DNA of 64,000 nt from Acidobacteriota bacterium (GTDB lineage: Bacteria > Acidobacteriota > UBA6911 > RPQK01 > JBOGJG01). Numbering within the stretch: the stretch's first letter is position 1; every line of letters starts with the position of its first letter. Location: positions 9,791-73,790 of the forward strand of contig JBOGJG010000277.1 of NCBI GenBank assembly GCA_050747825.1, in the 5' to 3' direction. This document shows positions 6,011 through 59,454 of the stretch, piece by piece. A program made the translations under genes and the position numbers. The notes beneath the pieces were generated by a model. The model did no database searches. It was not told the origin of the DNA and was given only the letters and a program-made list of their open reading frames with translations.

Positions 6011-6418
6011 TTACTTCTTGTCGTCGTGGTGCCGGTCGTCGTGACGGCGGAGGAATTCCTGGAATTTAATCTTTTGCTCGGAATCAAGAGCATTCATGAT
6101 TTCGGCTCGGGTTTTCGCTCCAATCTCTTTTGAACGTGCACGCGCCTCATTCCAGCACAGCTTGTACTGTTCGCGGCTCCGTTCGAGGATTTGACGGATG
6201 TTGACGGTCTGCTGCTCGTTCAAGGCGAGTTCGGCGCTGAGACGGTCCATGATCTTGCCAGGGTGACTTTCCTTCTTGCCGTCCTGATGCTGATGGTCGG
6301 TGGCATCGGCTTGTGAAGGAGCCCGGTCCATCCACAGGTAGGTTGACACGCTCCCGAAAGCACCTCCGGCAAGGAAGATGAATACCACCCAGAATAGAGC
6401 TTTACTGCGACTATTCAC
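6011..6418 (-). CDS. Periplasmic Spy/CpxP-family (LTXXQ-like) stress protein
   Basis: 135 aa with signal/anchor, charged helical repeats (LALNEQQ...), and a His/Asp-rich tail typical of periplasmic heavy-metal-sensor or chaperone proteins of this family. Confidence 0.5.
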   Translation of the reverse strand: MNSRSKALFWVVFIFLAGGAFGSVSTYLWMDRAPSQADATDHQHQDGKKESHPGKIMDRLSAELALNEQQTVNIRQILERSREQYKLCWNEARARSKEIGAKTRAEIMNALDSEQKIKFQEFLRRHDDRHHDDKK

Positions 6419-16894: not shown

Positions 16895-16937
16895 GAACAC
16901 GAATTCTGCTAAAATTACCGCCCTTCCCGATAATCAA

Positions 16938-17012
16938 GCCGGCGTAGCTCAACGGTAGAGCGGCGCATTCGTAATGCGTAGGTTGTAGGTTCGATTCCTA
17001 TCGCCGGCTCCA
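16938..17012 (+). tRNA. tRNA-Thr (anticodon CGU)
   Basis: Folded by hand into a 75-nt cloverleaf: acceptor GCCGGCG/CGCCGGC, D arm GCTC-AACGGTA-GAGC, anticodon stem GCGCA/TGCGT with loop TTCGTAA (U33, anticodon CGT, A37), T arm GTAGG-TTCGATT-CCTAT, discriminator U, encoded CCA. Confidence 0.85.
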
Positions 17013-17202
17013 GGATTTTCAACAAATCAGCGAGCTCCATCGATCAGGCTACGGCGGCCACAGCCGCCGGGCTGGCCAGATGCGCCGCTGCTCCCGGGAT
17101 TATCTCCAACGCCTCGACCACTTCCGGAAAGTAGCGCGCCAGCGGCTGTCCCGATTTGGATTGAAGCACGCTCGCCATCTTCGCAGCCTTCGGCCTCGCT
17201 CG

Positions 17203-17238
17203 TCAGCGGGCAGCGGTCAGCGGTCAGCGGGTCAGCGG
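17203..17238. repeat. Heptamer microsatellite (GTCAGCG)n, about 5 units
   Basis: gtcagcgg gcagcg gtcagcg gtcagcgg gtcagcgg. Same family (reverse complement) as the 47381-47481 array. Confidence 0.8.
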
Positions 17239-17260
17239 CTGCATCTCGAGTTCCATTGCT

Positions 17261-18214
17261 TTACCGCAGCACCTTTTCGAGTTCAAAGCGCCCGCGTGAA
17301 GAAACCAAAGGTTCAAAGAGATCACCTTTCCTGCTGACGCGGCGGCGGGCGTTATCGATGCGAAAGTCTTCGATCTTGATTCCTTTTCGGACTTCTTCCC
17401 AGGTGACCGGCATCGAGACTGTGGCCCTGGGTTTGGGACGCACGGAATAGACAGAAGCGAGTGTGCGACCCCAGGCGTTCTGGTTGTAGTCCACCAGTAC
17501 CCGGCCAGCCGGGCGCTTGCTGATCCGGTACTCTGCCGTGATCAGGTCGGGATAAAGCCCCTCCAGGCTCTTGGAGAGCCTCTTGGCGAAAGTCCAGACC
17601 TGCTTCTGAGTGGGGCCTCTCACTATAGGCACATACGCATGGATACCCTTTGAGCCGGTGGTCTTGGCAAAATTCGGGATCTTCAAAGCATCCAGGGCCT
17701 CGTGGACGATCAGGGCCGTCTCACAGACTTTTTCGAAGCCGACGTCACCGACGGGGTCGAGATCGAAATGGAGATAATCAGGACGATCCACGTCATCACA
17801 TCGGGCGTACCACTGATTGAGATCGATGCAGCCCAGGTTCACAACCCAGAGCAGCGAAGCCACGTCCTGGACCACCGGAAAGTCAATCACGTTTCCCGAA
17901 GAATGCTTGATCGAACAGAGCTCTATCCAATCGGGACGGTATGAAGGAGCCCTCTTCATAAAGAAGAAATCCCCCTTCCAGCCGTTGGGGTAGCGCTTCA
18001 TGACCATGGCTCGGTCGCGCAGATGGGGAAGAAGCACGTCAGACATATCGGAATAATATTGAAGCAGGTCGCCCTTGGTCAGTCCCAGATCAGGCCAGAA
18101 AGGCTTTCGCAGATTGGTAAGCTTCAGCTTGCGGCCATCCAGATCGTATTGAACACTGTTCTTGTCTGTTGGAATCTTCAGAGCGCTATGCCGCTCCTGG
18201 GCTGTCTTCGGCAT
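17261..18214 (-). CDS. NHEJ DNA polymerase/primase domain protein (LigD Pol-domain, standalone)
   Basis: 317 aa carrying the archaeo-eukaryotic primase-type motifs of LigD PolDom (...YLHFDLDP...SKGIHAYVP...). Confidence 0.7.
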   Translation of the reverse strand: MPKTAQERHSALKIPTDKNSVQYDLDGRKLKLTNLRKPFWPDLGLTKGDLLQYYSDMSDVLLPHLRDRAMVMKRYPNGWKGDFFFMKRAPSYRPDWIELCSIKHSSGNVIDFPVVQDVASLLWVVNLGCIDLNQWYARCDDVDRPDYLHFDLDPVGDVGFEKVCETALIVHEALDALKIPNFAKTTGSKGIHAYVPIVRGPTQKQVWTFAKRLSKSLEGLYPDLITAEYRISKRPAGRVLVDYNQNAWGRTLASVYSVRPKPRATVSMPVTWEEVRKGIKIEDFRIDNARRRVSRKGDLFEPLVSSRGRFELEKVLR

Positions 18215-21693: not shown

Positions 21694-22959
21694 TTATTCT
21701 CCTTTCTGTTTTAAAAGCGCCAGAAAGTGCTCAGCCACTTTCAGCGCAAACTCCGGACTGTTGATATGGTGCGGGTAAGTCTTCAGCGGAATATTCGGGC
21801 GAAGGTCCTCTTTTAAAGCTCTTACGAAACTCTGATCGGACTCGGGATTCCAGAAGGGGCCGCCTGGTACATTGGGGATGGAGAGTCCCTCGGTAGGAAT
21901 GATCACTTCCAGAGGTCCTTTGGCCTGGTTGAGCTTGCGGGCAAAGATGCGGCCCAGCTCGGTCATCTCACCAGTCAAAGTCCTGACCAGCGTGAATTCC
22001 GGATTGTGATCGTAAACCGGACGTCCCTTCATAGATGCGGGCACTTCCTCGGGTGGGCCATGGACCGAAAAATCGATGCACCCGGGTACCACAACCTGAG
22101 GCAGCCCGAGCCGGCCGATTCTTTCAAGGCGCTCCGGACCACCGGCGTGAAAGCCCCCTACCAGCTCATCGGTAAGCTCATCCGTCGTGTAATCGATGAC
22201 TCCCACGAACATGTCCTGGGCAGCCAGTTCTTCCATGGCTGGGCCTCCCACCCCGTTCGAATGAAAGATCACCGTTTCGAGTCCGTTCTCGGCCAGTTTG
22301 TCGCGAATCAGCATCACCGGCTTGGTCGTATTTCCCAACATGGTGATGGCCACGTATCTGCGGCTGGTGTCGGGACGCATCCCGCGCCCGTGCTCCAGCA
22401 TTCCTTTCAGACTGGCGGCGACATTGTCGAAAATTGCCGTGCTGATGGGATTTAATCCCAGGATATCGACCACGGAATGAACCACCATCACGTCCCGCGT
22501 ACCCACCAGGGGGCCAAAGCGGCGCCGCCCCGAAGCAATGGGGGTCACCAGCACTTTGGGGATTCCCACCGGGAGGCACTTCATGGCTGTGGCGCCCAGC
22601 ACGGCCCCCTCTGCGCCGCCCAGTGAGGTGACGGCGTCCAGCTGTCCTTCGCGAAACAGCTTTAGCGCCAGATTACGAATGCCTTCCTGCATCCCGTGGA
22701 CGGCCTTGCCGCGACTGCCGGCATTGCGCAGCGCGTCGATGTCAGTGCCGGCCAGCCTGGCCACCTCGGCCCGGCCGATGTCGGGGATGATATCCAGCGG
22801 TTCGCCCAAGATTCCAGAGTCGACCACCAGCGGCTGAAGCCCAAGCTGCTTCAGGCGATCACGAAGATAGGCGATCTCCGGACCTTTCGTATCAAGTGTG
22901 CCGATAACGACAACGCTTCCAGCCAATGTCCCTCCCTGCATTCGAGTTTCAGGTTCCAA
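21694..22959 (-). CDS. UPF0261/Tm-1-like ATP-binding protein
   Basis: 421 aa with the two-domain Tm-1-like layout and Gly-rich loops (VVVIGTLDTKG...). The start may be an internal Met. Confidence 0.6.
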   Translation of the reverse strand: MEPETRMQGGTLAGSVVVIGTLDTKGPEIAYLRDRLKQLGLQPLVVDSGILGEPLDIIPDIGRAEVARLAGTDIDALRNAGSRGKAVHGMQEGIRNLALKLFREGQLDAVTSLGGAEGAVLGATAMKCLPVGIPKVLVTPIASGRRRFGPLVGTRDVMVVHSVVDILGLNPISTAIFDNVAASLKGMLEHGRGMRPDTSRRYVAITMLGNTTKPVMLIRDKLAENGLETVIFHSNGVGGPAMEELAAQDMFVGVIDYTTDELTDELVGGFHAGGPERLERIGRLGLPQVVVPGCIDFSVHGPPEEVPASMKGRPVYDHNPEFTLVRTLTGEMTELGRIFARKLNQAKGPLEVIIPTEGLSIPNVPGGPFWNPESDQSFVRALKEDLRPNIPLKTYPHHINSPEFALKVAEHFLALLKQKGE

Positions 22960-23019
22960 GTTTCAAGTTCAAGTCACGAATCGTTGCCCAACCAGGACTT
23001 GGAGCTTGGAACCCGGAAC

Positions 23020-23904
23020 TCATATGTGTTTCCGCAGCTCTCTAATCGATTCCTCAACGAGCCAACTATAGAACTCGTCGGAGAGCGTGCCGCTGCCGTG
23101 GTCCTGGATAAATTTCAGTTCTTCAGGCGTCAACTCGACCTCACCCTTTTCCAGCGCGTTCTTATAAGGGTTGGCGGGAGTCCGGTCCAGAGGGGCAACG
23201 AATTCAACCGTCAGAGCGCCATCATAGCCGGCCTTTTTCAAAGTGCCGATCAATTTGCCCCAGTCCCAGCTCCCCTGGCCGGGCGCCATACGATTGTTGT
23301 CGGCCACATGGAAGTCCACCAGCCGATCTCGCGATTTGAGGATGGCCTGATAGGGATCGGCTTCTTCAATATTGATGTGAAAAGCGTCCAGGCAAATGCC
23401 ACATTCCGGACCCACCTCCTCCGCCAGCAGGAGCGCCTGATCGTGTCGGTTCAGAAAGTAAGTTTCAAATCGGTTCAGCGGTTCCAGAGCGAGTTTGACG
23501 CCCTCCCGCATTCCATGCTCGTAGCACTGCTTCAGGCTCTGGACAGCCCACCGCCACTCTTCATCCTGGCCGGCCTCCGGCTTGATCTTGCCTACGGTCG
23601 AAGGCACGATCGTGATCTCATAGCCCTCCAGCTCTTTCACCATCGTGATGCAGTCCTGGACATACTGAACCGACTCGGCCCGTTTGTCTTCGTCTGTGGC
23701 CAGGAGGTCGCGCTCTCCCAGCATCAGCGTGACGGATCCCCAGCATTTGAGTCCGTGGTCTTTCAGCAGCTTTCCAACCGCTTTGGTGTCGTACTTCTCC
23801 GGCTCGCCGCTGATCTCGATGGAATCATATCCGTATCTGGCCAGACGAGCGATTGTGGTTTCGATCGGCTCTCCTCTCATCCAGTTGTGCATTGCAACCT
23901 GCAT
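23020..23904 (-). CDS. Sugar-phosphate isomerase/epimerase (xylose-isomerase-like TIM barrel)
   Basis: 294 aa with TIM-barrel AP-endonuclease-2/XylA-like blocks (GYDSIEISGE..., LALEPLNR, HINIEE...). Confidence 0.65.
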   Translation of the reverse strand: MQVAMHNWMRGEPIETTIARLARYGYDSIEISGEPEKYDTKAVGKLLKDHGLKCWGSVTLMLGERDLLATDEDKRAESVQYVQDCITMVKELEGYEITIVPSTVGKIKPEAGQDEEWRWAVQSLKQCYEHGMREGVKLALEPLNRFETYFLNRHDQALLLAEEVGPECGICLDAFHINIEEADPYQAILKSRDRLVDFHVADNNRMAPGQGSWDWGKLIGTLKKAGYDGALTVEFVAPLDRTPANPYKNALEKGEVELTPEELKFIQDHGSGTLSDEFYSWLVEESIRELRKHI

Positions 23905-23923: not shown

Positions 23924-25066
23924 TTAGAGATGTTCTGCCAAGATTTGATACAGCCCTTTTACTTGAATTCTCTCTTTTGCCTGGGTCTTCAGGTGATGCA
24001 GGCAAAGAGGGTCTTCCGTGATCAGTAAATCGGCACCGGCGTGAGAGGCATCTTCAAAACGAGCCTGCGCCAATTTGGAAGCGATATCGGGTTGTGTGAA
24101 TTCGAGCCCACCCACAGCCCCGCACGGAGACGCGCGCTGCTCCCGCCAGAACAGAGGAGCGGAAGGTATTCCCAAAGCAGCCTCCAGGAGACGGCGGGGG
24201 GCTTGATGGTCCCGCTGAACCCGCGGCGAATGACAGGGATCGTGGTAGGCGTATCTGAGGCTTGGGGCCTGAGGGTTGGGGCCTGAGGGTTTGAGCTTTC
24301 CGTGGCAAAGCGATCCAGCCAGGAAGGAGGTCAGTTCGACCACTTCGACTTCCTCGGGAAAGAGGATATTCAGGCGCTCGATGTACAAGGTCTTAAAGGC
24401 GTAGAGGTCTCCGGGTGAAAGGACGAACAGCCTGCGGCAGCCGGAGTCCCGGACTTCATCGACAACCTCTCGAGCCAGTTTGGAAGCCGTGCCGGGCAGC
24501 CCCAGAGAACTGGCCAGGAATCCGGAAGAACGGCCGGCGCCAATCAAAACGGCCGAGATGCCGGCAGCCTTCAGAAGCTGAACTGCAGCCTCGAGTGTAG
24601 CCGGACTCAGGTGTTGTGCGGCGTCTCCAACAAACAGCGCCGTTTCCCCCCGCCCTTCCGCTCTTTGAGGCTTCTCCTCAGCATATGGATTCCGCCACTT
24701 CCGCAGTGCCTGATCAGCGACCGCCACCTGGGCAGGAGCCAGTCCCAACTCCACTACCTGAGCCCGGGCTGCGGCAATAGCAATGGGAAGCGGCTGGTCG
24801 GTGGCGCAGTGCGACCGGCACAATCCACAGTCCGCGCACTTGTAAAGCACATCGACCGTTTCTTCGTTCCATTGCAGGAGATTGCGCTTGACCGAAGAAA
24901 TGGTCAGAGCCCAACCGTGCGGAGTCAGCGTCTCGTTGTATGTGACGTTTCCGACCGGGCATACGTGCCGGCACATGAGGCTGAAACGGCACAGTTCCGT
25001 CGTAGCAAGGGGATCTTCAATGTAGGCTGGAGATCTTCTGTGCCTGAGACCGTCGTGATCGCTCAT
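23924..25066 (-). CDS. (Fe-S)-binding protein, GlcF-like (ferredoxin motif plus two CCG Cys-rich domains)
   Basis: CADCGLCRSHCATDQP matches the 4Fe-4S CxxCxxCxxxCP pattern. C-terminal YHDPCH and DPLCLHH Cys-rich repeats look like the glycolate-oxidase FeS subunit. Confidence 0.7.
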   Translation of the reverse strand: MSDHDGLRHRRSPAYIEDPLATTELCRFSLMCRHVCPVGNVTYNETLTPHGWALTISSVKRNLLQWNEETVDVLYKCADCGLCRSHCATDQPLPIAIAAARAQVVELGLAPAQVAVADQALRKWRNPYAEEKPQRAEGRGETALFVGDAAQHLSPATLEAAVQLLKAAGISAVLIGAGRSSGFLASSLGLPGTASKLAREVVDEVRDSGCRRLFVLSPGDLYAFKTLYIERLNILFPEEVEVVELTSFLAGSLCHGKLKPSGPNPQAPSLRYAYHDPCHSPRVQRDHQAPRRLLEAALGIPSAPLFWREQRASPCGAVGGLEFTQPDIASKLAQARFEDASHAGADLLITEDPLCLHHLKTQAKERIQVKGLYQILAEHL

Positions 25067-43852: not shown

Positions 43853-45238
43853 ATGAGGAATTATTGGTTTGGTTTTCGGGGTGCGGCCAGAGCATGGCTT
43901 CTGCTGTATGTGGTCTGGTCAACGGCGGGGGCGGTCTGGGGCGCTCAACGAGACGAGGCGGATGAATTGAAAGCCAGAATCGAGGAGTTGGAGAAACGCC
44001 TGGGGCAGTTGGAAACAAAGGAGGAGGCGCCCGCTTCTGAGAGAACCGTCAATGTGGAAGAATTAAGGCGCCAACTGGACATCCTGGCCCAGGAAGTCGA
44101 AAGGATGCGTGCCGGAGAGCAGAAGATAGAGCTAAGCGAGGCGCAAAAACGGGGACTGGGACTGGCCCCTTCGGCGGGAGCGACTTACGAGAGGCGACAG
44201 GGAATTTCCCTTTCCGGCTACGGAGAGATGCTCTACCAGAATCGCGATGATGAGAATGAAAGCGGGTTACCCAGTTCAGATGACACTCGACTCGACTTTC
44301 TCAGGCACGTCTTCTACATGGGATATCGTTTCAGCGACAAACTGATTTTCAATTCGGAAATCGAAGTCGAGCACGCCAATGAGATCGGCGTCGAGTTCGC
44401 CTATATCGATTTTCTGGCCAACGAACATATCGGCCTGCGAGGCGGAATGTTGCTGCTTCCTATGGGCCTCACCAACGAGTTCCATGAACCAAATGTCTTC
44501 CTGGGAGCCAAGCGTCCTGAGACGGAGACCCGGATCATCCCCTCCACCTGGCGGGAGAACGGATTTGGAGTGGTCGGCAGGGCCGGAATCTTTAACTACC
44601 GCGCTTACGTTGTCAACGGACTCAACGCCGCCAATTTCAGCGCCAGCGGTATCAGAGGCGGGCGCCAGAAAGGCAGCCAGGCCAGGGCGCAGGATCTGGC
44701 CTTTGTGGGACGCCTTGACGTCAACCCTACCCCCGGCGTCTTCTTTGGCGGATCACTTTACCGGGGCGGCTCGGATCAGGGGCAATTCGAGGTAAGCGGC
44801 AGCGAGTTGAGCGTCGATACACTCATCGGGGAAGTGCATGGACAGGTTCAAGTCCGGGGTCTGGATCTCAGGGGCCTTTACGCACAGGCCCAACTGGACG
44901 ATGTCGCCGGCCTGAATTTGGCCCTGGGCCGGTCAGGCTCACAGGCGATTGCCCAGACTATGGAGGGCGGCTATTTGCAGTTTGGGTATAACGTCCTCTC
45001 CCAGCATACAGAGCGGTTTCGGCTGACGCCTTATTACCGGCTCGAAATGGTGGATACTCAGGCCGAGCTCCCGGCCGGCTTCACCTCCAATGAGGCGCAG
45101 GACGGCATTTTTCATACCATGGGATTCGAGTTTCGTCCCATTCACGGCGTGGTGGTCAAGACCGACTACCAGTGGATACGCAATGAGGCAAATAGCGGGC
45201 TGAATCAGTTCAATGTAAACCTGGGCTATGCCTTTTGA
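43853..45238 (+). CDS. Outer-membrane porin with N-terminal coiled coil (OprO/P- or DcaP-like)
   Basis: Signal peptide, an approximately 70-aa heptad coiled coil, then an amphipathic beta-strand barrel ending ...NVNLGYAF (C-terminal Phe). Start set at MRNYWFG with an AAGGAGGAG SD. Confidence 0.6.
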   Translation: MRNYWFGFRGAARAWLLLYVVWSTAGAVWGAQRDEADELKARIEELEKRLGQLETKEEAPASERTVNVEELRRQLDILAQEVERMRAGEQKIELSEAQKRGLGLAPSAGATYERRQGISLSGYGEMLYQNRDDENESGLPSSDDTRLDFLRHVFYMGYRFSDKLIFNSEIEVEHANEIGVEFAYIDFLANEHIGLRGGMLLLPMGLTNEFHEPNVFLGAKRPETETRIIPSTWRENGFGVVGRAGIFNYRAYVVNGLNAANFSASGIRGGRQKGSQARAQDLAFVGRLDVNPTPGVFFGGSLYRGGSDQGQFEVSGSELSVDTLIGEVHGQVQVRGLDLRGLYAQAQLDDVAGLNLALGRSGSQAIAQTMEGGYLQFGYNVLSQHTERFRLTPYYRLEMVDTQAELPAGFTSNEAQDGIFHTMGFEFRPIHGVVVKTDYQWIRNEANSGLNQFNVNLGYAF

Positions 45239-45304
45239 GCCACGGATTTCACAGATTGATGCCGATCATTCTGCGTCATCCGTGCCATCCGTGGCTAAAA
45301 ACAC

Positions 45305-45901
45305 GTGACTGAATTTATGCACCAATGTACTAAGCCTTTCCGCCACGGCCGATGGCGGCGCCGCACACTGGCTGTCCTTTTTTTCTTGTACCCGGCCGGT
45401 GTACTCGGCGGACCGGTTATCAGCCGCGAGGAGGCTCTGGCGGCCGCCTACTCGGAGGCGGCTATTGAGGCGGAAAGGATCTTTTTAACTGAGCGCCAGC
45501 TCAGGCAGGCGGAAGCTCTCTGCGGAGAGGAAATCCCCAGCCCGCTGATTGCGCGTTACACAGCCATTCGAGATGGGAAGATCGTCGGCCGTGCCTATAT
45601 AGACACTCATGTAGTCCGAACGAAGAACGAAAGTCTCCTCATATGCCTGGACCAAGCAGGCAAGGTCAGGAGAATTGAAGTCACTGCCTTTATGGAGCCG
45701 CCGGAGTATCAGGCCTCCGAAGCCTGGCTGAATCAGTATCGGGATAAACATCTGAGCGATGATCTGCATTTGCAGCGCTCGATCCGTGCCATTGCCGGAG
45801 CCACGCTTACAGCCTTGGCTGCCAATCGCGCGGTGCGGCGAGTGCTGGCTATCGATCGCGTTCTCACACAGACCGTCGCTCATTCTCGGGCGAAGAAATG
45901 A
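45305..45901 (+). CDS. FMN-binding domain protein (flavinylation substrate), exported
   Basis: N-terminal Arg-rich signal/anchor, FMN_bind-type domain with flavinylation motif IAGATLTA (the [ST]GAT[LIV][ST] context of NqrC/RnfG/NosR). Confidence 0.65.
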   Translation: MTEFMHQCTKPFRHGRWRRRTLAVLFFLYPAGVLGGPVISREEALAAAYSEAAIEAERIFLTERQLRQAEALCGEEIPSPLIARYTAIRDGKIVGRAYIDTHVVRTKNESLLICLDQAGKVRRIEVTAFMEPPEYQASEAWLNQYRDKHLSDDLHLQRSIRAIAGATLTALAANRAVRRVLAIDRVLTQTVAHSRAKK

Positions 45902-46374
45902 ATACCTGGGAGAAGTGGACTTTTCACATCTCAGCGGTCCTCGTCTCATTGACCGGAGTGGCTTATCTGTGGATGAAGTATCTGTTGGAAGGCAGCGATC
46001 CCTTCAGCGTGATCAATCACCCCTGGCAGCCTTTTTTCCTGCACCTTCATATTGTGGCAGCTCCTTTCCTGCTCTTCATTGTGGGGGTACTCTTCCCCTC
46101 CCATATCCTGGGAAAACTCGGCAAGACGAAGGTGCCCAATCGCCGCTCCGGCTGGGTGACGCTGATCTCTTTTCCCATTATGGCCGTCTCCGGCTATCTG
46201 CTTCAGGTGGTAAACCACCCTCTGCTCCTTCAGATGACCCTGCTGCTGCATCTGGCCGGCGGTGGGCTTTTTGTGGTGTCTTATGCCATCCACCAGGTGG
46301 TCAGCGTCCGCCTCCTCAAAGCCGCCTACGGGCGCAAGGCAGGTGACGGGTGGCAGGTGACGGGTGGCAGGTGA
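45898..46374 (+). CDS. His-rich 4-TM membrane protein (MsrQ-like/DUF4405-like putative b-type haem carrier)
   Basis: Four predicted TM helices with conserved His in TM1, TM2 and TM4. ATGA start/stop overlap with the upstream gene. The C-terminal tail is encoded by a 14-mer tandem repeat. Confidence 0.5.
   Translation: MNTWEKWTFHISAVLVSLTGVAYLWMKYLLEGSDPFSVINHPWQPFFLHLHIVAAPFLLFIVGVLFPSHILGKLGKTKVPNRRSGWVTLISFPIMAVSGYLLQVVNHPLLLQMTLLLHLAGGGLFVVSYAIHQVVSVRLLKAAYGRKAGDGWQVTGGR
46338..46374. repeat. Tandem 14-mer (GGCAGGTGACGGGT) x about 2.6
   Basis: ggcaggtgacgggtggcaggtgacgggtggcaggtga, at the 3' end of the 4-TM gene. Confidence 0.8.
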
Positions 46375-46380
46375 AACAGC

Positions 46381-47400
46381 GTGAGCCATCTGCTGTACTT
46401 GAAAGTCTTTACTGCAACGGCGCTCATGATGCTTTCAGCGCCCAGCGATGCGTTGGTCGAGGTCAAGCGGGAAGTGTTTCTGATGGGCACGCGCTGCACT
46501 CTGACGGCCTACGCCTCTGACGGCACCGGGGGACTGGAAAACCTAGAGTCATTCCTACGTATTCTGGAGCAGTCCGAACGGGAGCTGAGCACCTGGCGAG
46601 CGGATAGTCTTTTCAGTCAGTTGAACCGTCAGCCACCAGGTGTGCCCTTGGGCCTGGACCGTTCTTTATGCCGGCTTCTCTCCGATCTTTTCTATTGGAA
46701 TCGAGAGACGGGATTGGCTTTTGATCCCGGCATCGGCGCTCTTATCGAGGTTTGGGGATTGCGAGAGGGCGGCAAGGTTCCCTCCCCTGAATCCATCGAG
46801 ACAGCCCGCAAGCAGGCAGGGCTCAACTACTTCAGGCTTGATCCCAATCAATGCGAGATCACGCGCACCCAGAACGTTTGGATTGACAGCGGCGCCTTCG
46901 GCAAAGGCGAGGCTCTGGATCGAGTCCATCGATATGCTTCTCAAATAGACAGTGGTCCCTGGATGATTGACTTGGGTGGACAGATCATGGTGAGTGGATC
47001 TCCTCCAGACGAGGAAGGCTGGGAAGTCGGCCTGGCGCATCCCGTACGACGGGGAAAATCGGTCCTGAAGCTGAGGCTCAAGGAAGGATCACTGGCCGCC
47101 AGCGGGGGATCGGAAAGGGATTTGGCGGTCCATGGCGCACGCGTCGGGCATATCCTCGATCCGCGCACCGGCCGGCCGGCAGCCTTCAAGGGCTCAGTCG
47201 TCGTCTGGCACCAGCAAGCTCTCGTCGCCGATATTCTTTCCACCGCTCTTTTCGTCATGGGACCTGAAGAGGGACTCTCCTGGGCCAACTCCAGGCAGGT
47301 GGCAGCCTGTTTTATCTTCCCATCTAGCGACGCCCGTTGTCACGAGATTAGCGCCAGCCTTTCTTTCTCCAGTCTCTTCCCACTGACCACTGACCACTGA
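46381..47400 (+). CDS. apbE: FAD:protein FMN transferase (ApbE family), periplasmic
   Basis: Signal peptide, then ApbE-family blocks (VFLMGT...ALD.GA..KG...ASGG...). GTG start. The C-terminal codons run into the heptamer array. Confidence 0.75.
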   Translation: MSHLLYLKVFTATALMMLSAPSDALVEVKREVFLMGTRCTLTAYASDGTGGLENLESFLRILEQSERELSTWRADSLFSQLNRQPPGVPLGLDRSLCRLLSDLFYWNRETGLAFDPGIGALIEVWGLREGGKVPSPESIETARKQAGLNYFRLDPNQCEITRTQNVWIDSGAFGKGEALDRVHRYASQIDSGPWMIDLGGQIMVSGSPPDEEGWEVGLAHPVRRGKSVLKLRLKEGSLAASGGSERDLAVHGARVGHILDPRTGRPAAFKGSVVVWHQQALVADILSTALFVMGPEEGLSWANSRQVAACFIFPSSDARCHEISASLSFSSLFPLTTDH

Positions 47401-47481
47401 CCGCTGACCGCTGACCGCTGACCACTGACCGCTGACCGCTGACCACTGACCACTGACCGCTGACCGCTGACCGCTGACCGC
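47381..47481. repeat. Heptamer microsatellite (CACTGAC/CGCTGAC)n, about 14 units
   Basis: Direct head-to-tail 7-nt units with two variant bases. No spacers, so not CRISPR. Confidence 0.9.
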
Positions 47482-47518
47482 ACGAATGCGCTCTGTTAAG
47501 AGGCAGGATAAAAGGGCC

Positions 47519-47854
47519 TCATGAGGGTGACTCGGCGGCTGCCGGTTGGAACGAGTCCACCAGTTCCCGCAAGAGAGGCTGCAGTTTGACGGACTGAATG
47601 TTGGCCTGGGTTTTTCCCCGCAAAAATACCGGCGATGTCGAGAAGGTCGCCCACGAGGGTATTTTGCAGGATAGCGTTACTCTCAATAATCTCCAGGGCG
47701 GGAGCCTGTTTGCGGGCCGCAATTCGGTTTCGATTTGTTTACGCTTCTCAACTTCCCGATGGAGATCGGCATTCGTCTTACGGAGTTCCCTGGTCCGTTC
47801 TTTTACTCGCAGGTTAAGCTCTTCGCGGGCGCGCCTGAGAGATTCTTCTGGCAT
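47519..47854 (-). pseudogene. Decayed histidine-kinase remnant (coiled-coil linker plus distal half of DHp; frameshifted, no H-box or ATPase domain)
   Basis: Frame a reads MPEESLRRAREELNLRVKERTRELRKTNADLHREVEKRKQIETEL. Frame b reads RAARKQAPALEIIESNAILQNTLVGDLLDIAGIFAGK. Frame a then resumes TQANIQSVKLQPLLRELVDSFQPAAAES, which is HisKA-like (LL.DLLD...GK..L....V.L..LL.E). No HELRTP H-box and no HATPase_c follows. Confidence 0.5.
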
Positions 47855-48009
47855 TCCGCGTCTCCCTTGTAGATTACATCGTATACGGAAAGGTTAAGCG
47901 GACAAAAGTGGTCCCAGAGGATTGGCGGCGCAATGGTCAGCATTCCGGGAACTTTTCAGGTTATTTGATGTCATAATAAATAAGCACCACTGCTGGTGTC
48001 AGGTTTTCG

Positions 48010-48627
48010 ATGGCAGAAATGAGCGGGTCAATCAGTTCGGGAGTCGCGTTCGGTGAAGCCGAAACTTTAGTCGCTCGGCTGAAAGAAGGGGACGAAAGCG
48101 CGTTCTCCGAAGCTTTCGAGCTTTACAAAGATCTGATCTTTACCGTCTGTTCCAAGCTTCTGGCCGAAAAGGGCGAGGCCATGGACGTCACTCAGGAGGT
48201 CTTTCTGACCCTTTACCGCAAGATCCACTATTTCCGTGGGGAATGTACGCTCAAGACCTGGCTTTACCGGGTTACTCTGAACCATATCGGCAACCGCAAT
48301 CGCTGGTGGCGGCGGCGTTCCAGAGACCGTACTCAATCTTTGGGTCTGACCGTCAACGGGAAAACCATCGATGTGCCCTGCAATAGGGCGCGTCCGGATG
48401 GCCGTTTTTTTTCCCTCGAAGTTCAGGAGGCGCTGCAAAAAGGCCTTCAGGATCTGCCATTTGATCAGCGCGCTTGCGTGATCCTGCGTGATGTGCAGGG
48501 ACTGACTTATGAGGAAATCGCGCAGGCGATGTCCGTGCAGATCGGTACCGTCAAGTCACGCATCGCCCGAGGCCGAGAGCGGCTGCGAGAGCTTTTAAGA
48601 GATTACCGGCCGGGAGCATCGCTATGA
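48010..48627 (+). CDS. RNA polymerase ECF-type sigma-70 factor
   Basis: Region 2 (DVTQEVFLTLYRK) and region 4 (LRDVQGLTYEEIAQAMSVQIGTVKSRIARGRERLRE). Confidence 0.8.
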   Translation: MAEMSGSISSGVAFGEAETLVARLKEGDESAFSEAFELYKDLIFTVCSKLLAEKGEAMDVTQEVFLTLYRKIHYFRGECTLKTWLYRVTLNHIGNRNRWWRRRSRDRTQSLGLTVNGKTIDVPCNRARPDGRFFSLEVQEALQKGLQDLPFDQRACVILRDVQGLTYEEIAQAMSVQIGTVKSRIARGRERLRELLRDYRPGASL

Positions 48628-49352
48628 AGTGTGACCATGTCCGTCTAAGAGTTCACGACTATTTGGACCAGGAATTGTTGCCTGAAGAAAGCCTCGAACT
48701 GAACCTGCATCTGGGGCACTGTGAGGCCTGCAGAACGATCTTTGACGAATACGGCTTTATTAAAGAAGCCATTTCACTGAAAGTAGAGTTGCCGCAGCGT
48801 TCACAGGAACAGATGCGGGCCTGGATTCAGCATCGAGCTCACCGGACGCTGCAGACTCGCCTTTGGGAAGCCTGGGATTTTTTCAGGACCTTTTGCCGGG
48901 ATCTGGATCGCCGTCTGGTATGGTCAAAGCTCTCGGCCACTCCCATTACCCTGGCGTTCTTTTTCGTCATCGTGGCTCAGTTTTCGCATGTGGATTTTTA
49001 CGAATGGACTCATCCTGTTTTCGGAGAGCCCCGGCAGGAAGCCACTCTTCTTCGCAAGCCGATCATCTCCCAGGCCCACGTCCGGCAGCAGAATACGGCT
49101 CTGGAGGGACTTTCAAACGCGGTTTGGAGACTTCCTTATGAGGATTCCCTTTCGCTGGTGGCCAAGATCACGCCCGAAGGCAACGCTCAAATCGACAGCG
49201 TCTTGAACGCCCCCAAGAGCCTGGACCTTCTGAACGCCATCGATCTGAACCTGCGCGAGAGCCAGTTCGAAATGGCTCGCACCGTGGGCAGCCCGTTTCT
49301 GATCTATTCATTTCAGAAGATCGACGTCTACGAATACCAGCGCGGACTGTAA
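48624..49352 (+). CDS. Anti-sigma factor (zinc-finger HxxxCxxC type, single TM)
   Basis: HLGHCEAC motif, a TM helix around residue 105-125, and a 4-nt overlap with the sigma gene. Confidence 0.6.
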   Translation: MKCDHVRLRVHDYLDQELLPEESLELNLHLGHCEACRTIFDEYGFIKEAISLKVELPQRSQEQMRAWIQHRAHRTLQTRLWEAWDFFRTFCRDLDRRLVWSKLSATPITLAFFFVIVAQFSHVDFYEWTHPVFGEPRQEATLLRKPIISQAHVRQQNTALEGLSNAVWRLPYEDSLSLVAKITPEGNAQIDSVLNAPKSLDLLNAIDLNLRESQFEMARTVGSPFLIYSFQKIDVYEYQRGL

Positions 49353-49355
49353 CGA

Positions 49356-49384
49356 GTGGCGGGTGTCACGCCGCCACCCGCCAC
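49356..49384. other. GC-rich 10-bp stem-loop at convergent gene junction
   Basis: GTGGCGGGTG-(9 nt)-CACCCGCCAC between the anti-sigma stop (49352) and the minus-strand stop (49389). No U-tract on either side. Confidence 0.4.
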
Positions 49385-49388
49385 CCGC

Positions 49389-51590
49389 TCACGGAATCGT
49401 GACTGCCACTTTGCCGGTGCCGATGTTACCGACCGAGTCCACGACGCGGATTGAGATCACATGCGCTCCGGACTCGAGGGCTTCGGTGGTGAAAGAGAAC
49501 TGCTCGCTCGGAGTATCCGCAATCCCGTCCTGGGGAAAGATAATATGCCAGGTTTCTGAATCCACCGAATACTCCGCCTGGTGAACAGTGCTGAATCCGC
49601 CAGTGTCTGCAGTGAACTGCACGCTTGCCTGCCGCCTCTCCAGCTGAGGGGCAGCCACTTCCACAGAAGGAGAAGAATTGGAAATAACGAAAGCCTTGCT
49701 CACCAGCTCGCTGCTCAGGGCCTGCGCCTGCGGGTTACTGGGAAGATCCGATGCAACCACCTTGACGAAATAAGTACCCCTTGGAAAGCTGACACCGTCC
49801 ATCGTGAAATGGCTCTCGGTGAGACCGTCTTTAAGCAGTTTCCACGAATCTACTTCCTGAGTGCGATAGTAGATGGAAAAGGCCAGGTCATCCTGGTTGC
49901 GGTCGCTGGCCTGCCAGGAGAAGCTTCGAGCGCCCGGAATGTAGACTCTGCGCGCCGGAGGCGTGGAGCCGCGATCTATATTGCGGATGCTGCGGGGCAA
50001 AGACCTGAGGTGCGCTCCGGCAGGTCCCCCGGGAGACACTCCTCCCGAAGGATTTGAATTCGGGAACTGGACGAGAGCAACACCGGGGGGGTGCACGGTT
50101 ACCGATTCCACCTGGGGCGCAAGGTTGCGCTGCAGATAGCTCACAGTGACCAGCTCAACGGCGTTGCTGTCGGAAACGACGGCAGCCGACCGGCCGGCCT
50201 CCGGAAATTCGATCTTCCACTGCAGATATCGGGCCGCCGGGCTCAAGACGGCGCTTCCCCCGGAATTCTGGTACGGCTCGCTCCAGTTGCTCCAGGTGCC
50301 GTCCGGATCTTCCGTGTTGCCGGAGCGCGTGTACACTTTCACTCCTGTCGTCTGATTCTTTACGAACCAGCGAATCGTTCCCCAGGAGCTGGCCACTCCA
50401 GCGTCAAGCGGCTTTGACTCGTACACACCGGCCTTGGAAGGAGTCGTGAGCAGCCGGAATAACTTGCCCAGGTTGCTGGTGACAACGTACAGAGATCGAT
50501 CGTGCTCCAGCAGATGGGTGATCTGCTCCTCCGGGCTTTGAGCCAGAAAGGTCACGAGCTTGTCGGGGCTGATGGAGACGATTCTCCCCTGGTTGCCGGT
50601 CCCCACCAGCACATTGCCGTCACTGCGAACCAGAAGGTCAAAAGCCAACTGGTCGTTCGAAGTGTACAGTGTTTCCACCAGATTTTGGCGATCTATCTTG
50701 TAGACCTCCAGCTTTTTCCCTTTTTCGGTTCCGGCTACGCTGACGGTACTCTCTCTGTCGGGTGAGCCGTTCTCGTCTTCCGAAGGTTCCGAACTGCTCT
50801 TGGTGGCAGCAGAGACTGTCGGAGGTTCAGAACCCTCCGGGCCGCCCAAAGCAGCGGCGTAAACGTTGCCGTAGCGGTCATAGGCGATCGCTTTCAGCTC
50901 TTGAAGCGGCGAATCGTAGAGGACGAAAGCCGAGCCGGCGGGAGAAATCCGGTAGAGAAGGGCTTCAGGAGCACCCCCGGCCAGAAGATTCCCTTCTGCG
51001 TCCACGGTTAGACTGACGATATGGGTCTCTTTGCTGTCGTAAAAGGGGGTTCCCTGCCCGTCCGGAGCAACTTTGTAAATGATGCCCTTGGGACCGGTGG
51101 CGACGAAGACATTATTCTGGGCATCGACGGCCAGCGCCCAGATGTATTTTTCTCCCGGGTCGAAGAAAATTTCCGGCTGCCCCTGGCTGTTTAGCCGATA
51201 GACCTTTCCATCCGGAGAAGTGCCTGCGTAAATTCGGTTGGAGGAATCCACAGCCAGCGCATACACGCTCGGCTCATTCAGTTTGGCCCATTCGGAGCCG
51301 TTTCCGCCGGCCGGCTGGCGAAAAATCTTGCCATTGCTTCCGGTGGCCAAAAACACATTGCCGCCTCTGTCTGTTAGCGCGTCAAAAATGAAAGCTTCTT
51401 CCGTCTCCAGAAGCATCTCCAGGTCGGGGGCCAGCACCAACCTTCCGTCGCTGGTCACCGATACACCCGTGAGTTCGCCCTGCAGGAACTCCTCCTGCGT
51501 GGAGAGCGTCCAGTGGGACGGCTCGGTTGCCTCCACCGGAAGGGCGGAAGAGTAAAAGACTATAGATAAAAGAAGAGCAAATTTTTTCAT
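49389..51590 (-). CDS. Secreted beta-propeller repeat protein with C-terminal Ig/FN3-like region
   Basis: Signal peptide. Multiple repeats of the form ...N.VF.ATG..G.IY.../...GN...GT...G.I (two-component-regulator-propeller/YVTN-like). The C-terminal roughly 200 aa is beta-rich. Confidence 0.5.
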   Translation of the reverse strand: MKKFALLLSIVFYSSALPVEATEPSHWTLSTQEEFLQGELTGVSVTSDGRLVLAPDLEMLLETEEAFIFDALTDRGGNVFLATGSNGKIFRQPAGGNGSEWAKLNEPSVYALAVDSSNRIYAGTSPDGKVYRLNSQGQPEIFFDPGEKYIWALAVDAQNNVFVATGPKGIIYKVAPDGQGTPFYDSKETHIVSLTVDAEGNLLAGGAPEALLYRISPAGSAFVLYDSPLQELKAIAYDRYGNVYAAALGGPEGSEPPTVSAATKSSSEPSEDENGSPDRESTVSVAGTEKGKKLEVYKIDRQNLVETLYTSNDQLAFDLLVRSDGNVLVGTGNQGRIVSISPDKLVTFLAQSPEEQITHLLEHDRSLYVVTSNLGKLFRLLTTPSKAGVYESKPLDAGVASSWGTIRWFVKNQTTGVKVYTRSGNTEDPDGTWSNWSEPYQNSGGSAVLSPAARYLQWKIEFPEAGRSAAVVSDSNAVELVTVSYLQRNLAPQVESVTVHPPGVALVQFPNSNPSGGVSPGGPAGAHLRSLPRSIRNIDRGSTPPARRVYIPGARSFSWQASDRNQDDLAFSIYYRTQEVDSWKLLKDGLTESHFTMDGVSFPRGTYFVKVVASDLPSNPQAQALSSELVSKAFVISNSSPSVEVAAPQLERRQASVQFTADTGGFSTVHQAEYSVDSETWHIIFPQDGIADTPSEQFSFTTEALESGAHVISIRVVDSVGNIGTGKVAVTIP

Positions 51591-58162: not shown

Positions 58163-58456
58163 TTACTCTCCGGCTTCCCGGGTACCGGGTGCCCTTTGGG
58201 CGGCGTGCCGGTCTCCAGCCTTCTTAATCCCATAGCGCCTCATCTTATGGCTCAGAGAGTTGCGGTGGATGCCCATGCATTCTGCGGCGCGGCTCAGGTT
58301 GCCGTTGCTTTGCCGGAGCGCCCGTGAAATGAAAAGCTTTTCAAATTGTTCGAGCGCTTCGGGCCACAGAATCCCCTTGGCGACCATCTCATCGATTGCG
58401 TCTTCCAGAGCATCTTTAATCGGCAGCTTATTGTTGTGGCTTTTAGAAGAGTCCAT
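58163..58456 (-). CDS. Fis-family DNA-binding protein
   Basis: C-terminal Fis-type HTH (ALRQSNGNLSRAAECMGIHRNSLSHKMRRYGI). Start set at MDSSKS; the track ORF is 19 codons longer. Confidence 0.6.
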   Translation of the reverse strand: MDSSKSHNNKLPIKDALEDAIDEMVAKGILWPEALEQFEKLFISRALRQSNGNLSRAAECMGIHRNSLSHKMRRYGIKKAGDRHAAQRAPGTREAGE

Positions 58457-58549
58457 GTTGACGGTCAACTTTTTCTTGTACAACACCTCACCAATGATTG
58501 CCAGTGACAACAAACACAGGCTGACCCTCTCGCCATAAAAACAGAACCC

Positions 58550-58585
58550 CGGTCCGCGGTCCGCGGTCAGCAGTCCGCGGTCAGC
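58550..58585. repeat. Heptamer microsatellite (GGTCCGC/GGTCAGC)n at the purC 3' end
   Basis: cggtccgcggtccgcggtcagcagtccgcggtcagc. The GGTCAGC unit belongs to the same family as the 17203 and 47381 arrays. It encodes the last residues of the purC ORF. Confidence 0.75.
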
Positions 58586-59454
58586 TTCTTTCCGGTCAAA
58601 CGCCGGAAAGCCTCAAGGTAGCGATCTGACGTGGCCTCCAAGATCGACCGTGGAAGCTCGGGTCCAGGAGCTTTTTTGTCCCAATCCAGCGTCTCCAGAT
58701 AGTCGCGAATAAACTGCTTGTCAAAGGACGGCTGGGAACGGCCCGGCTGATACTGGTCTTCCGGCCAGAAACGCGAAGAATCGGGGGTCAGGGCCTCGTC
58801 AATCAGGAGTAGCCTGGAATCATCCCATCCAAATTCAAACTTGGTATCACAAATCATGATGCCGCGCCGGCTCGCGTAGTCACGAGCGCGCCCATAAATA
58901 CGGAGACTCGAGTCTCGAACATTCTCGGCCACTTCAGCTCCCACAGCCTCAACGGCTTGATCGAAAGTGATGTTCTCATCGTGGCCGCTGGCTGCTTTGG
59001 TAGCCGGCGTGAAAATCGGCTCAGGCAACTCTTCCGACTCTCGCAACCCCGGAGGCAGTTTGATTCCACAGATCGCTCCGGTCGCCTGATAATCCTTCCA
59101 ACCCGATCCGGCCAGATAGCCGCGCACGACGCACTCGATTGGAAGCGGCCGGCACTTGCGAACCAGCATCGAGCGTTGATCCAGCAATGCCTCAAAGGGC
59201 TGCAGCTCTTCTGGAAAATCCGATGTCTGGGCTGAAATGAGATGATTTTCAACCAGGCCCTCCAACTCTCCAAACCAGAAGACTGAAATCTGAGTCAGCA
59301 CCCTCCCCTTGTTCGGAATCGTGTTGGGGAGCACTACATCAAAGGCCGAGATTCGATCGGTAGCCACCATGAGGAGCCGCCCGCCCACTTCGAACAACTC
59401 GCGCACCTTACCCCGGCTGATTTTCTTAATTCCTGGTAGATCGAGCGTTTTCAT
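58567..59454 (-). CDS. purC: Phosphoribosylaminoimidazole-succinocarboxamide (SAICAR) synthase
   Basis: 295 aa colinear with purC (GKVRELFEV..., ...ICDTKFEFG...). Confidence 0.9.

Follow-up and report, generated by a model that had tools for sequence, protein, structure and literature searches.

Tandem arrays of seven-nucleotide (7-nt) units lie scattered over the stretch of DNA analysed here (the window: 64 kb of contig JBOGJG010000277.1 in assembly GCA_050747825.1, a metagenome-assembled genome (MAG) of an Acidobacteriota bacterium), and one of them, about 14 units of CTGACCR at 47381..47481, begins within the last codons of the gene for ApbE. An original prediction, made from the letters of the window, had described a dispersed family of such heptamers that supplies the C-terminal codons of unrelated genes; the four arrays that it listed, the three genes that end inside arrays, and the open reading frame (ORF) that follows one of these genes are given below.

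47381..47481, + strand: (CTGACCR) array, ~14 units (Tandem Repeats Finder (TRF), 47383-47481: period 7, 14.1 copies, 94% matches, consensus CTGACCG)
17202..17238, - strand: (CTGACCG)-type array, ~5 units, the plus strand reading (GTCAGCG)-type (TRF and direct reading)
58550..58585, - strand: degenerate array of ~5 units (GCTGACC, GCGGACT, GCTGACC, GCGGACC, GCGGACC), the plus strand reading GGTCCGC/GGTCAGC (TRF and direct reading)
46338..46374, + strand: 14-mer (two heptamers) GGCAGGTGACGGGT, 2.6 copies (TRF, 100% matches)
46381..47400, + strand: ApbE gene (FAD:protein FMN transferase; Pfam PF02424)
45898..46374, + strand: gene for a four-transmembrane (4-TM) membrane protein in an FMN_bind / 4-TM / ApbE cluster, its tail and stop in the 46338 array
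58567..59454, - strand: purC (SAICAR synthetase), its last 5 codons and stop in the 58550 array
58163-58513: Fis-family helix-turn-helix ORF downstream of purC, its start 37-95 nt past the 58550 array

Arrays of the window and the genes that end in them

Each of the four listed arrays was confirmed by TRF and by direct reading, and the description of a dispersed family built on one heptamer unit holds for the CTGACCR-type arrays at three loci (47381, 17202 and 58550). The dimer motif CTGACCRCTGACCR, allowing up to two mismatches, has 23 matches in the window against 1.45 +/- 1.28 in shuffled sequence, and 21 of the 23 sit in these three arrays. Across the 14 units of the 47381 array the variable seventh base reads A A G G G A G G A A G G G G. 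The 46338 14-mer, which had been called related to this family, has only TGAC in common with the CTGACC unit, and is best regarded as a member of the same repeat class outside the CTGACC family. A scan of the window at periods 2-21 found arrays of period 7 or 14 at six loci, one array each at periods 3 and 6, and none at any other period; dinucleotide shuffles of the window give an expectation of ~0 arrays at period 7/14, the one period at which the window is enriched in repeats. Of its seven arrays, six occupy spacers or gene termini (the last 5-11 codons), the exception being an array at 24255 that encodes a within-gene linker.

The C-termini quoted in the original prediction are correct, and three genes do receive their last codons and stop from an array. 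ApbE closes with …SLFPLTTDH-stop, the first three units of the 47381 array encoding (P)LTTDH, its final 5-6 codons, together with the TGA (47398-47400); the 4-TM protein closes with …GDGWQVTGGR-stop, its last 11 codons and TGA being encoded by the 46338 14-mer array; and purC closes with …KKLTADC-stop, LTADC and TGA being drawn from the 58550 array, in which two of the five units retain TGA and which is identical in a second assembly. Alignments with homologues identify the residues concerned as non-conserved tails: for ApbE, an alignment that includes 14 homologues is invariant no further than F333, beyond which the tails range from 1 to ~20 residues; three 4-TM orthologues carry unrelated basic tails of similar length; and purC homologues with solved structures align up to residue 290-291 only.

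The supply of C-terminal codons is no special function and follows from the unit itself, as any TGA-bearing 7-nt unit stops all three frames within 21 nt (PMC4679880 had already argued likewise for TAACTGA), and it is for this reason that the unrelated genes ApbE and purC end inside arrays. Nor does the array begin inside an ORF in every case, as had been claimed: the 17202 array lies 22 nt past a stop, and arrays missing from the original list also break the rule.

The 46338 array repeats AGGTGA, uniting a stop codon and a Shine-Dalgarno-like motif in one (region 46338-46385). Its last AGGTGA copy lies 6 nt upstream of the ApbE GTG start, where it would serve as the Shine-Dalgarno sequence. 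In the syntenic relative L125, the 4-TM and ApbE genes overlap by ATGA instead.

Probable slippage and passive tolerance of arrays at gene ends

The arrays are probably heptanucleotide repeats that are made by slippage and passively tolerated in spacers and dispensable gene ends. They would be made and resized by slipped-strand mispairing in whole-unit steps, a process shown in relatives and inferred here, and would survive only where a frameshift is harmless, that is, in short spacers and at extreme gene ends, a restriction that follows from 7 not being a multiple of 3. The C-rich strand of CTGACCR carries TGA, which any run of three units places once in each reading frame, so that an array growing over a 3' end in the TGA orientation would replace at most ~6 terminal codons and supply a new stop; the gene would survive if its tail is dispensable. 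Such a process is a passive filter and not a device for making C-termini, a conclusion that rests on the sequence and on alignments. Copy-number change would then mainly shift intergenic spacing, silently for ApbE and not always so for purC.

Consequences for the two proteins were simulated as deletions or duplications of 1-3 units. ApbE kept its 339 aa in 78 of 78 events, with the tail unchanged in 72 and 1-2 residues altered in 6. The stop of purC was lost in 8 of 18 events, extending the protein by 24-137 aa, and some single-unit slippages fused purC in frame to the Fis-family ORF (products of 425-432 aa). The expectation that slippage alters C-termini thus fails for ApbE, the length of which is constant, and stands in part for purC. 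The lost purC stops, and the in-frame fusions among them, are what would recommend the arrays as contingency loci, phase-variation switches that alter the ApbE or purC products, an interpretation we regard as most improbable: the arrays lie at 3' ends of housekeeping genes and not in 5' coding regions or promoters, the length of ApbE is untouched, and the same argument from housekeeping genes has been made against phase variation for the GGGAATC repeats (PMC4692102). Membership of the contingency-locus class was rejected on these grounds.

Direct evidence of unit-step slippage in the heptamer class comes from three soil-metagenome contigs of a relative (L229, L230 and L231; L229 5933-6085), the flanks of which are 100% identical and which differ by exact 7-nt indels only: one array varies by a single CGGATTG unit, and its inverted (CAATCCG)n partner by a single AATCCGC unit. 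Copy number and unit also vary among orthologous spacers (L280, L281 and L300) with a nearly identical downstream gene, and arrays in other genomes frequently mix units that differ by one base, the pattern that mutation and subsequent slippage would produce. The claim that such arrays are prone to slippage is therefore upheld for the heptamer class by these exact indels, and finds no counterpart in the window's own arrays, which are identical in both assemblies.

At the ApbE stop, an orthologue that is 53% identical (L124) has a different TGA-bearing heptamer, GAGTGAY, starting in its last codons, and the most syntenic relative, L125, has no array; the position therefore recurs and the sequence is not inherited. 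Copy-number comparison is limited by the relatives at hand, the best non-self ApbE being 59-60% identical; the protein itself is on record in GCA_975374895.1 only.

That second assembly aligns to the window over 12.9 kb of its contig 173 with 0 mismatches and differs at 2 of 13,980 bases in its contig 39. Because the window spans the gap between these contigs and differs from contig 39 at two bases, it derives from another assembly, one that joins contigs 173 and 39, and is a different assembly of the same population. The contig break, at ~49253-49262, falls in the 3' part of an anti-sigma gene, ~110 nt before a CCGCCAC array. The portion of the genome surveyed comprised the window and 7.4 kb of adjoining sequence from the second assembly, and no further heptamer array was found in the added 7.4 kb. 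That the arrays or their copy numbers are an artefact of short-read assembly is scarcely credible. The window does come from a MAG, many CTGACCR arrays in other MAGs lie exactly at contig ends, and the copy number of the 101-nt array could be collapsed; against this, the arrays are the same in both assemblies, the shorter ones (18-37 nt) are easily covered by a single read, ORFs end cleanly within arrays, and such arrays also occur inside the multi-megabase single contigs OZ244818.1 and OZ244843.1.

Further arrays and associated features of the window, the first reading of which had omitted the arrays at 22941, 24255 and 49371, are as follows.

22941-22974, - strand: TTCAAGT, five copies, minus strand (ACTTGAA)-type (TRF)
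22939..23026, - strand: inverted pair of heptamer arrays that includes the foregoing, arms 30 nt, 80% complementary, 28 nt apart
24255..24291, no strand assigned: 14-mer CTGAGGGTTGGGGC, 2.6 copies (TRF)
23924-25066, - strand: CCG/4Fe-4S gene containing the 24255 array
49371..49388, no strand assigned: (CCGCCAC), 2.6 copies (TRF)
17261..18214, - strand: LigD Prim-Pol gene (Pfam E 1e-83)
47519..47854, - strand: orphan 111-codon ORF, 38 nt from the 47381 array

The inverted pair at 22939-23026 fills the spacer between the AP_endonuc_2 and UPF0261 genes from stop to ATG, the 22941-22974 arm abutting the likely ATG of the UPF0261 gene and the partner arm (22997-23026) overlapping the AP_endonuc_2 stop; its fold has an energy of -35.7 kcal/mol (z -2.4). 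The 24255 array codes for the linker KLKPSGPNPQAPSL immediately before the CCG domain, and its plus strand carries four GGG/GGGG tracts, for which a quadruplex is conceivable. The 49371 array occupies the 36 nt that separate the stop of the anti-sigma gene (49352) from that of a convergent 733-aa Reg_prop gene (49389).

The 17202 array had been described as lacking an upstream ORF stop and as being read through by a 44-codon ORF. An upstream gene does exist: the minus-strand LigD Prim-Pol gene, which has the CTGACC strand as its sense, stops 22 nt before the array, and the array is convergent with a tRNA-Thr (16938-17012, +). The 44-codon ORF (17044-17178, minus) does not traverse the array; the ORF that crosses it is on the plus strand (17080-17337, 85 codons) and is probably spurious. 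A 41-codon minus-strand ORF (…GIEPTTYALR…; 16915-17040) was ruled out as a gene, being the antisense reading of the tRNA-Thr. A search with Rfam at the gathering threshold gave the tRNA as the only match.

The decayed gene that had been placed at 47519 was not confirmed: the 111-codon ORF has 0 homologues among 5.8 billion proteins, and Pfam gives no match to it, whether alone or with its frames stitched together. A histidine-kinase remnant was considered at this site and set aside for want of support; kinase-like motifs can be read over two frames, but neither HisKA nor any other Pfam family gives a credible match to the stitched peptide. When window 47401-49388 is set against L125 4018-4540, the syntenic run from SBP_bac_3 through a 474-aa protein, FMN_bind and 4-TM ends with ApbE, and a second begins at the 733-aa Reg_prop gene. 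The ~2 kb that are extra in the window between these syntenic blocks hold the 47381 array, the orphan ORF and an extracytoplasmic function (ECF) sigma / zf-HC2 anti-sigma pair, and the 47381 array therefore lies at a synteny break.

Frequency, polarity and paired arrays across genomes

A scan for (CTGACCR)4 over one genome per GTDB species yielded at least 120 stretches. Among the matches listed, counted from record titles, ~29 belong to Acidobacteriota, 21 to Planctomycetota, 16 to Chloroflexota and 12 to cyanobacteria, with Verrucomicrobiota, Bacteroidota, Streptomyces, Pseudoalteromonas and others also represented (at least ~15 phyla), and some lie inside multi-megabase single-contig genomes, the Caldilineaceae chromosomes OZ244818.1 and OZ244843.1 being examples; cultivable carriers include Acidobacteria bacterium AB60 and Pseudoalteromonas prydzensis. 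Period-7 arrays numbered 226, with 54 different units, in 859 kb of unit-carrying genomes, against at most 6 arrays for any other period; carriers of CTGACCR are therefore generally rich in heptamer repeats. Over 369 kb around ApbE homologues, 18 period-7 and 14 period-14 arrays compare with 0-4 for other periods. The IMG/VR database holds (CTGACCR)4 in 53 stretches, four composition-matched heptamers in 1, 7, 2 and 6, and the published TAACTGA unit, likewise in four copies, in 32. CTGACCR is thus a favoured, not an arbitrary, unit.

As RNA, the 47381 array is unstructured (minimum free energy -6.6 kcal/mol, z +0.65); it has no inverted partner within 200 nt, and the 17202 array is also without a partner. 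A role for the 47381 array as hairpin or terminator was rejected, there being no fold, no partner and, in a consensus scan covering 44000-50000, no terminator-like site. The 58550 array folds through CCGCGG palindromes (-23.2 kcal/mol, z -3.0), is followed by the U-rich run UUCUGUUUUUAU, and could act as a terminator. At L124 4005-4100, inverted (GAGTGAY)n arrays stand at the stop of the ApbE orthologue between convergent genes, the first arm supplying the TGA; their hairpin of ~35 bp has a predicted energy of -56.1 kcal/mol (z -9.1).

Several observations weigh against slippage and passive tolerance as a sufficient account of the arrays. CTGACCR is 8-50x commoner in IMG/VR than the composition-matched controls. 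Inverted heptamer pairs, counted over loci L002-L307 on both strands, have the order 5'-G-rich arm ... C-rich arm-3' in 66 cases and the reverse in 4, a bias present for CTGACCR (37 vs 1) and for other units (29 vs 3; binomial p 2.6e-6). Single CTGACCR arrays likewise show a strong polarity towards neighbouring genes: on the side where the G-rich strand is the gene's sense, 32 of 56 cases have a 3' gene end no more than 30 nt away, against 10 of 62 on the C-rich-sense side (Fisher p 3.5e-6), with the gene calls behind these cross-genome statistics being crude longest-ORF calls. No length variants of the window arrays were found between the two near-identical assemblies (0 mismatches in 12.9 kb, 2 in 14 kb), and an exact-flank scan of Joint Genome Institute (JGI) metagenomes returned no match to the window locus. 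Pure neutral slippage accounts for neither the excess of CTGACCR nor its polarity, and the unit, one of a few heptamers favoured across many phyla, may owe this standing to a mutational preference or to recognition by a factor. All three CTGACCR arrays of the window are in the rarer polarity configuration. A simpler rule, by which the CTGACC strand would be the sense of both flanking genes, was discarded on counts of 29 vs 17 in same-direction spacers and 23 vs 21 in convergent vs divergent spacers; the polarity that does hold is that of distance to the nearest gene end.

In Pyrinomonadaceae MAGs, heptamer arrays form part of composite elements in the order stop, (AGTGGTC)3-4, a conserved core of ~70 nt, (CTGACCA)4-10, ATG; the core is promoter-like (TTGAC...TTGACATCTCAATCATAAA), and the element occurs three times in one MAG and once in another, with differing copy numbers. 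Opitutales genomes have a conserved leader of ~100 nt (81-91% identity between copies), followed by (CTGACCA)n and a gene start. The sites are as follows.

L002 (rc 6110-6340), L057 7370-7620, L067 2800-3050 and L036 (rc 340-550): Pyrinomonadaceae composite element
L098 7770-7998, L104 (rc) and L121 (rc): Opitutales leader

The dispersal of both kinds of element, together with the wide phyletic spread of the unit, which could reflect horizontal transfer, as has been argued for TAACTGA (PMC4679880), would fit an origin of the arrays as relics or end pieces of a small mobile element spreading the unit, similar to a miniature inverted-repeat transposable element (MITE). Such an origin is very unlikely for the window, the arrays of which share no common flanking sequence, have no transposase noticed adjoining them and, at the three CTGACCR loci, show no inverted partner, terminal inverted repeat or conserved core alongside (the Pyrinomonadaceae core itself was not looked for); a flank-vs-flank BLAST of 130 arrays found homology only within a few lineages (Pyrinomonadaceae, Opitutales).

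On a further explanation the arrays would act as functional punctuation of gene boundaries and be recognised by an RNA- or DNA-level factor, candidates, following the proposals on TAACTGA, being the ribosome and RNA-binding proteins, with possible roles as an all-frame stop barrier joined to an unstructured, start-codon-free leader or, for inverted pairs, as hairpin arms. Consistent with this are the recurrence of the unit at three loci in 64 kb and, among the matches listed, in at least ~15 phyla; its 8- to 50-fold excess and a frequency at least that of TAACTGA (53 vs 32); the many arrays in other genomes that abut start or stop codons; the 66 vs 4 bias of inverted pairs; the very stable hairpins that directly follow the stop in some pairs (L124, -56 kcal/mol, z -9); the promoter-like Pyrinomonadaceae core held between two arms directly upstream of ATG; and, in the window, the AGGTGA of the 46338 array 6 nt before ApbE and the 22941 array abutting an ATG. 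Punctuation nonetheless appears unlikely, given that unit and copy number are not conserved at orthologous sites, near-identical contigs vary in copy number, the neighbours are unrelated housekeeping genes, the 47381 array is unstructured and lacks a partner arm, no binding factor is known, and published work on analogous families detected no regulatory role. Its most explicit form, a cross-phylum, factor-read signal of fixed polarity, with the G-rich strand after stops, the C-rich strand (the TGA-bearing one in the CTGACCR family) before starts and pairs always 5'-G-rich ... C-rich-3', is to be thought rather unlikely. Were it true, the arrays would be under selection and not simply tolerated, perhaps as barriers that stop translation in every frame, as leaders free of start codons or as arms of terminators, and the occurrence of one heptamer in Acidobacteriota, cyanobacteria and Streptomyces alike would imply recognition by conserved replication, transcription or translation machinery.

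Under slippage with passive tolerance, the consequences concern annotation: in heptamer-rich genomes the stops and last residues of many proteins can be repeat-derived, hypervariable spacers can part neighbouring cistrons, and one slippage of the purC array could fuse two genes. Why 7-nt units dominate bacterial microsatellites, and why a few units such as CTGACCR recur in many phyla with fixed polarity relative to genes, is an old puzzle, to which the window adds Acidobacteriota and a new unit and which it alone makes no more testable. The finding is overall of modest interest, the observation behind the original prediction being confirmed and its interpretation partly supported.

Comparison with known heptanucleotide repeats

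Repeats of TAACTGA in marine Beggiatoaceae, cyanobacteria and Bacteroidetes resemble CTGACCR in their CTGA core, absence of intrinsic RNA structure and patchy cross-phylum spread (PMC4679880). They contain stops in all forward frames, with overlap of ORF ends limited to at most 18 nt (MacGregor 2015, PMC4679880); 14 TAACTGA sets overlap ORF ends, and many arrays lie just 5' of start codons (PMC4679880). The two families differ in unit and host phylum, the window arrays are few, and the CTGACCR arrays of the window all lie over or beyond an upstream gene's stop, whereas TAACTGA abuts downstream starts (PMC4679880). Membership of the TAACTGA family was ruled out for the window unit, CTGA alone being shared.

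The GGGAATC / GGGGA(C/T)T arrays of Xanthomonas and Nostoc lie at most 50 bp from stops, overlaps included (Rehm et al. 2015, PMC4692102), and have a strand polarity relative to the nearest ORF that is consistent with the polarity seen here (PMC4692102). They are similar also in being intergenic between same-direction ORFs, variable in length and sequence among close relatives, and present as inverted copies (PMC4692102). CTGACCR differs from them in having no G-tracts, so that a quadruplex is not expected, and no four-unit preference; at stop codons the sense strand is the C-rich one in the window and the G-rich one in the GGGAATC family (PMC4692102). A place among the G-quadruplex heptamers was excluded, as the G-rich strand of CTGACCR, YGGTCAG, is without GGG.

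The short tandemly repeated repetitive (STRR) sequences were defined in heterocystous cyanobacteria, their units, in work of Mazel and colleagues from 1990, reportedly being CCCCAGT, TTGGTCA and CAACAGT. The reverse complement of STRR2, TGACCAA, is one base from TGACCAC/TGACCGC. Both are dispersed tandem heptamers, with an Acidobacteriota MAG as host and a unit that is not identical in the present case, and on these two counts membership of the cyanobacterial STRRs was rejected. Mixed TGACCAA/CTGACCA arrays occur in a MAG of Thermoguttaceae (Planctomycetota; L038), and CTGACCA arrays in several cyanobacterial genomes. Repetitive extragenic palindromic (REP) sequences, bacterial interspersed mosaic elements (BIMEs) and MITEs were rejected as well, the 47381 and 17202 arrays having no inverted partner, the 47381 array being unfolded and the flanks not being shared.

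The closest match is a broader class, to which the STRR, TAACTGA and GGGAATC families belong. Among the long tandem repeats found in many free-living bacteria, heptanucleotide units predominate (Mrazek, Guo and Shah 2007, relayed in PMC4679880 and PMC4692102), and these long simple-sequence repeats (LSSRs) have in common with the window head-to-tail 7-nt units beyond chance length and the dominance of period 7 (Mrazek 2007, via PMC4679880, PMC4692102). According to the same two papers, LSSRs are a feature of non-pathogens with larger, G+C-richer genomes, show an intergenic bias and are attributed to polymerase slippage (via PMC4679880, PMC4692102). Neither CTGACCR nor Acidobacteriota was found described in that work to the extent that it is relayed there (Mrazek 2007, via PMC4679880, PMC4692102), and a text search of the literature for the CTGACCR dimer found no bacterial paper, subscription journals being largely outside its coverage; the unit and its Acidobacteriota host seem undescribed, and thus new, for heptamer repeats. 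The window arrays are heptanucleotide simple-sequence repeats, a known class of bacterial microsatellite, with tandem 7-nt units beyond chance, a predominance of period 7 and a bias towards non-coding sequence and gene termini.

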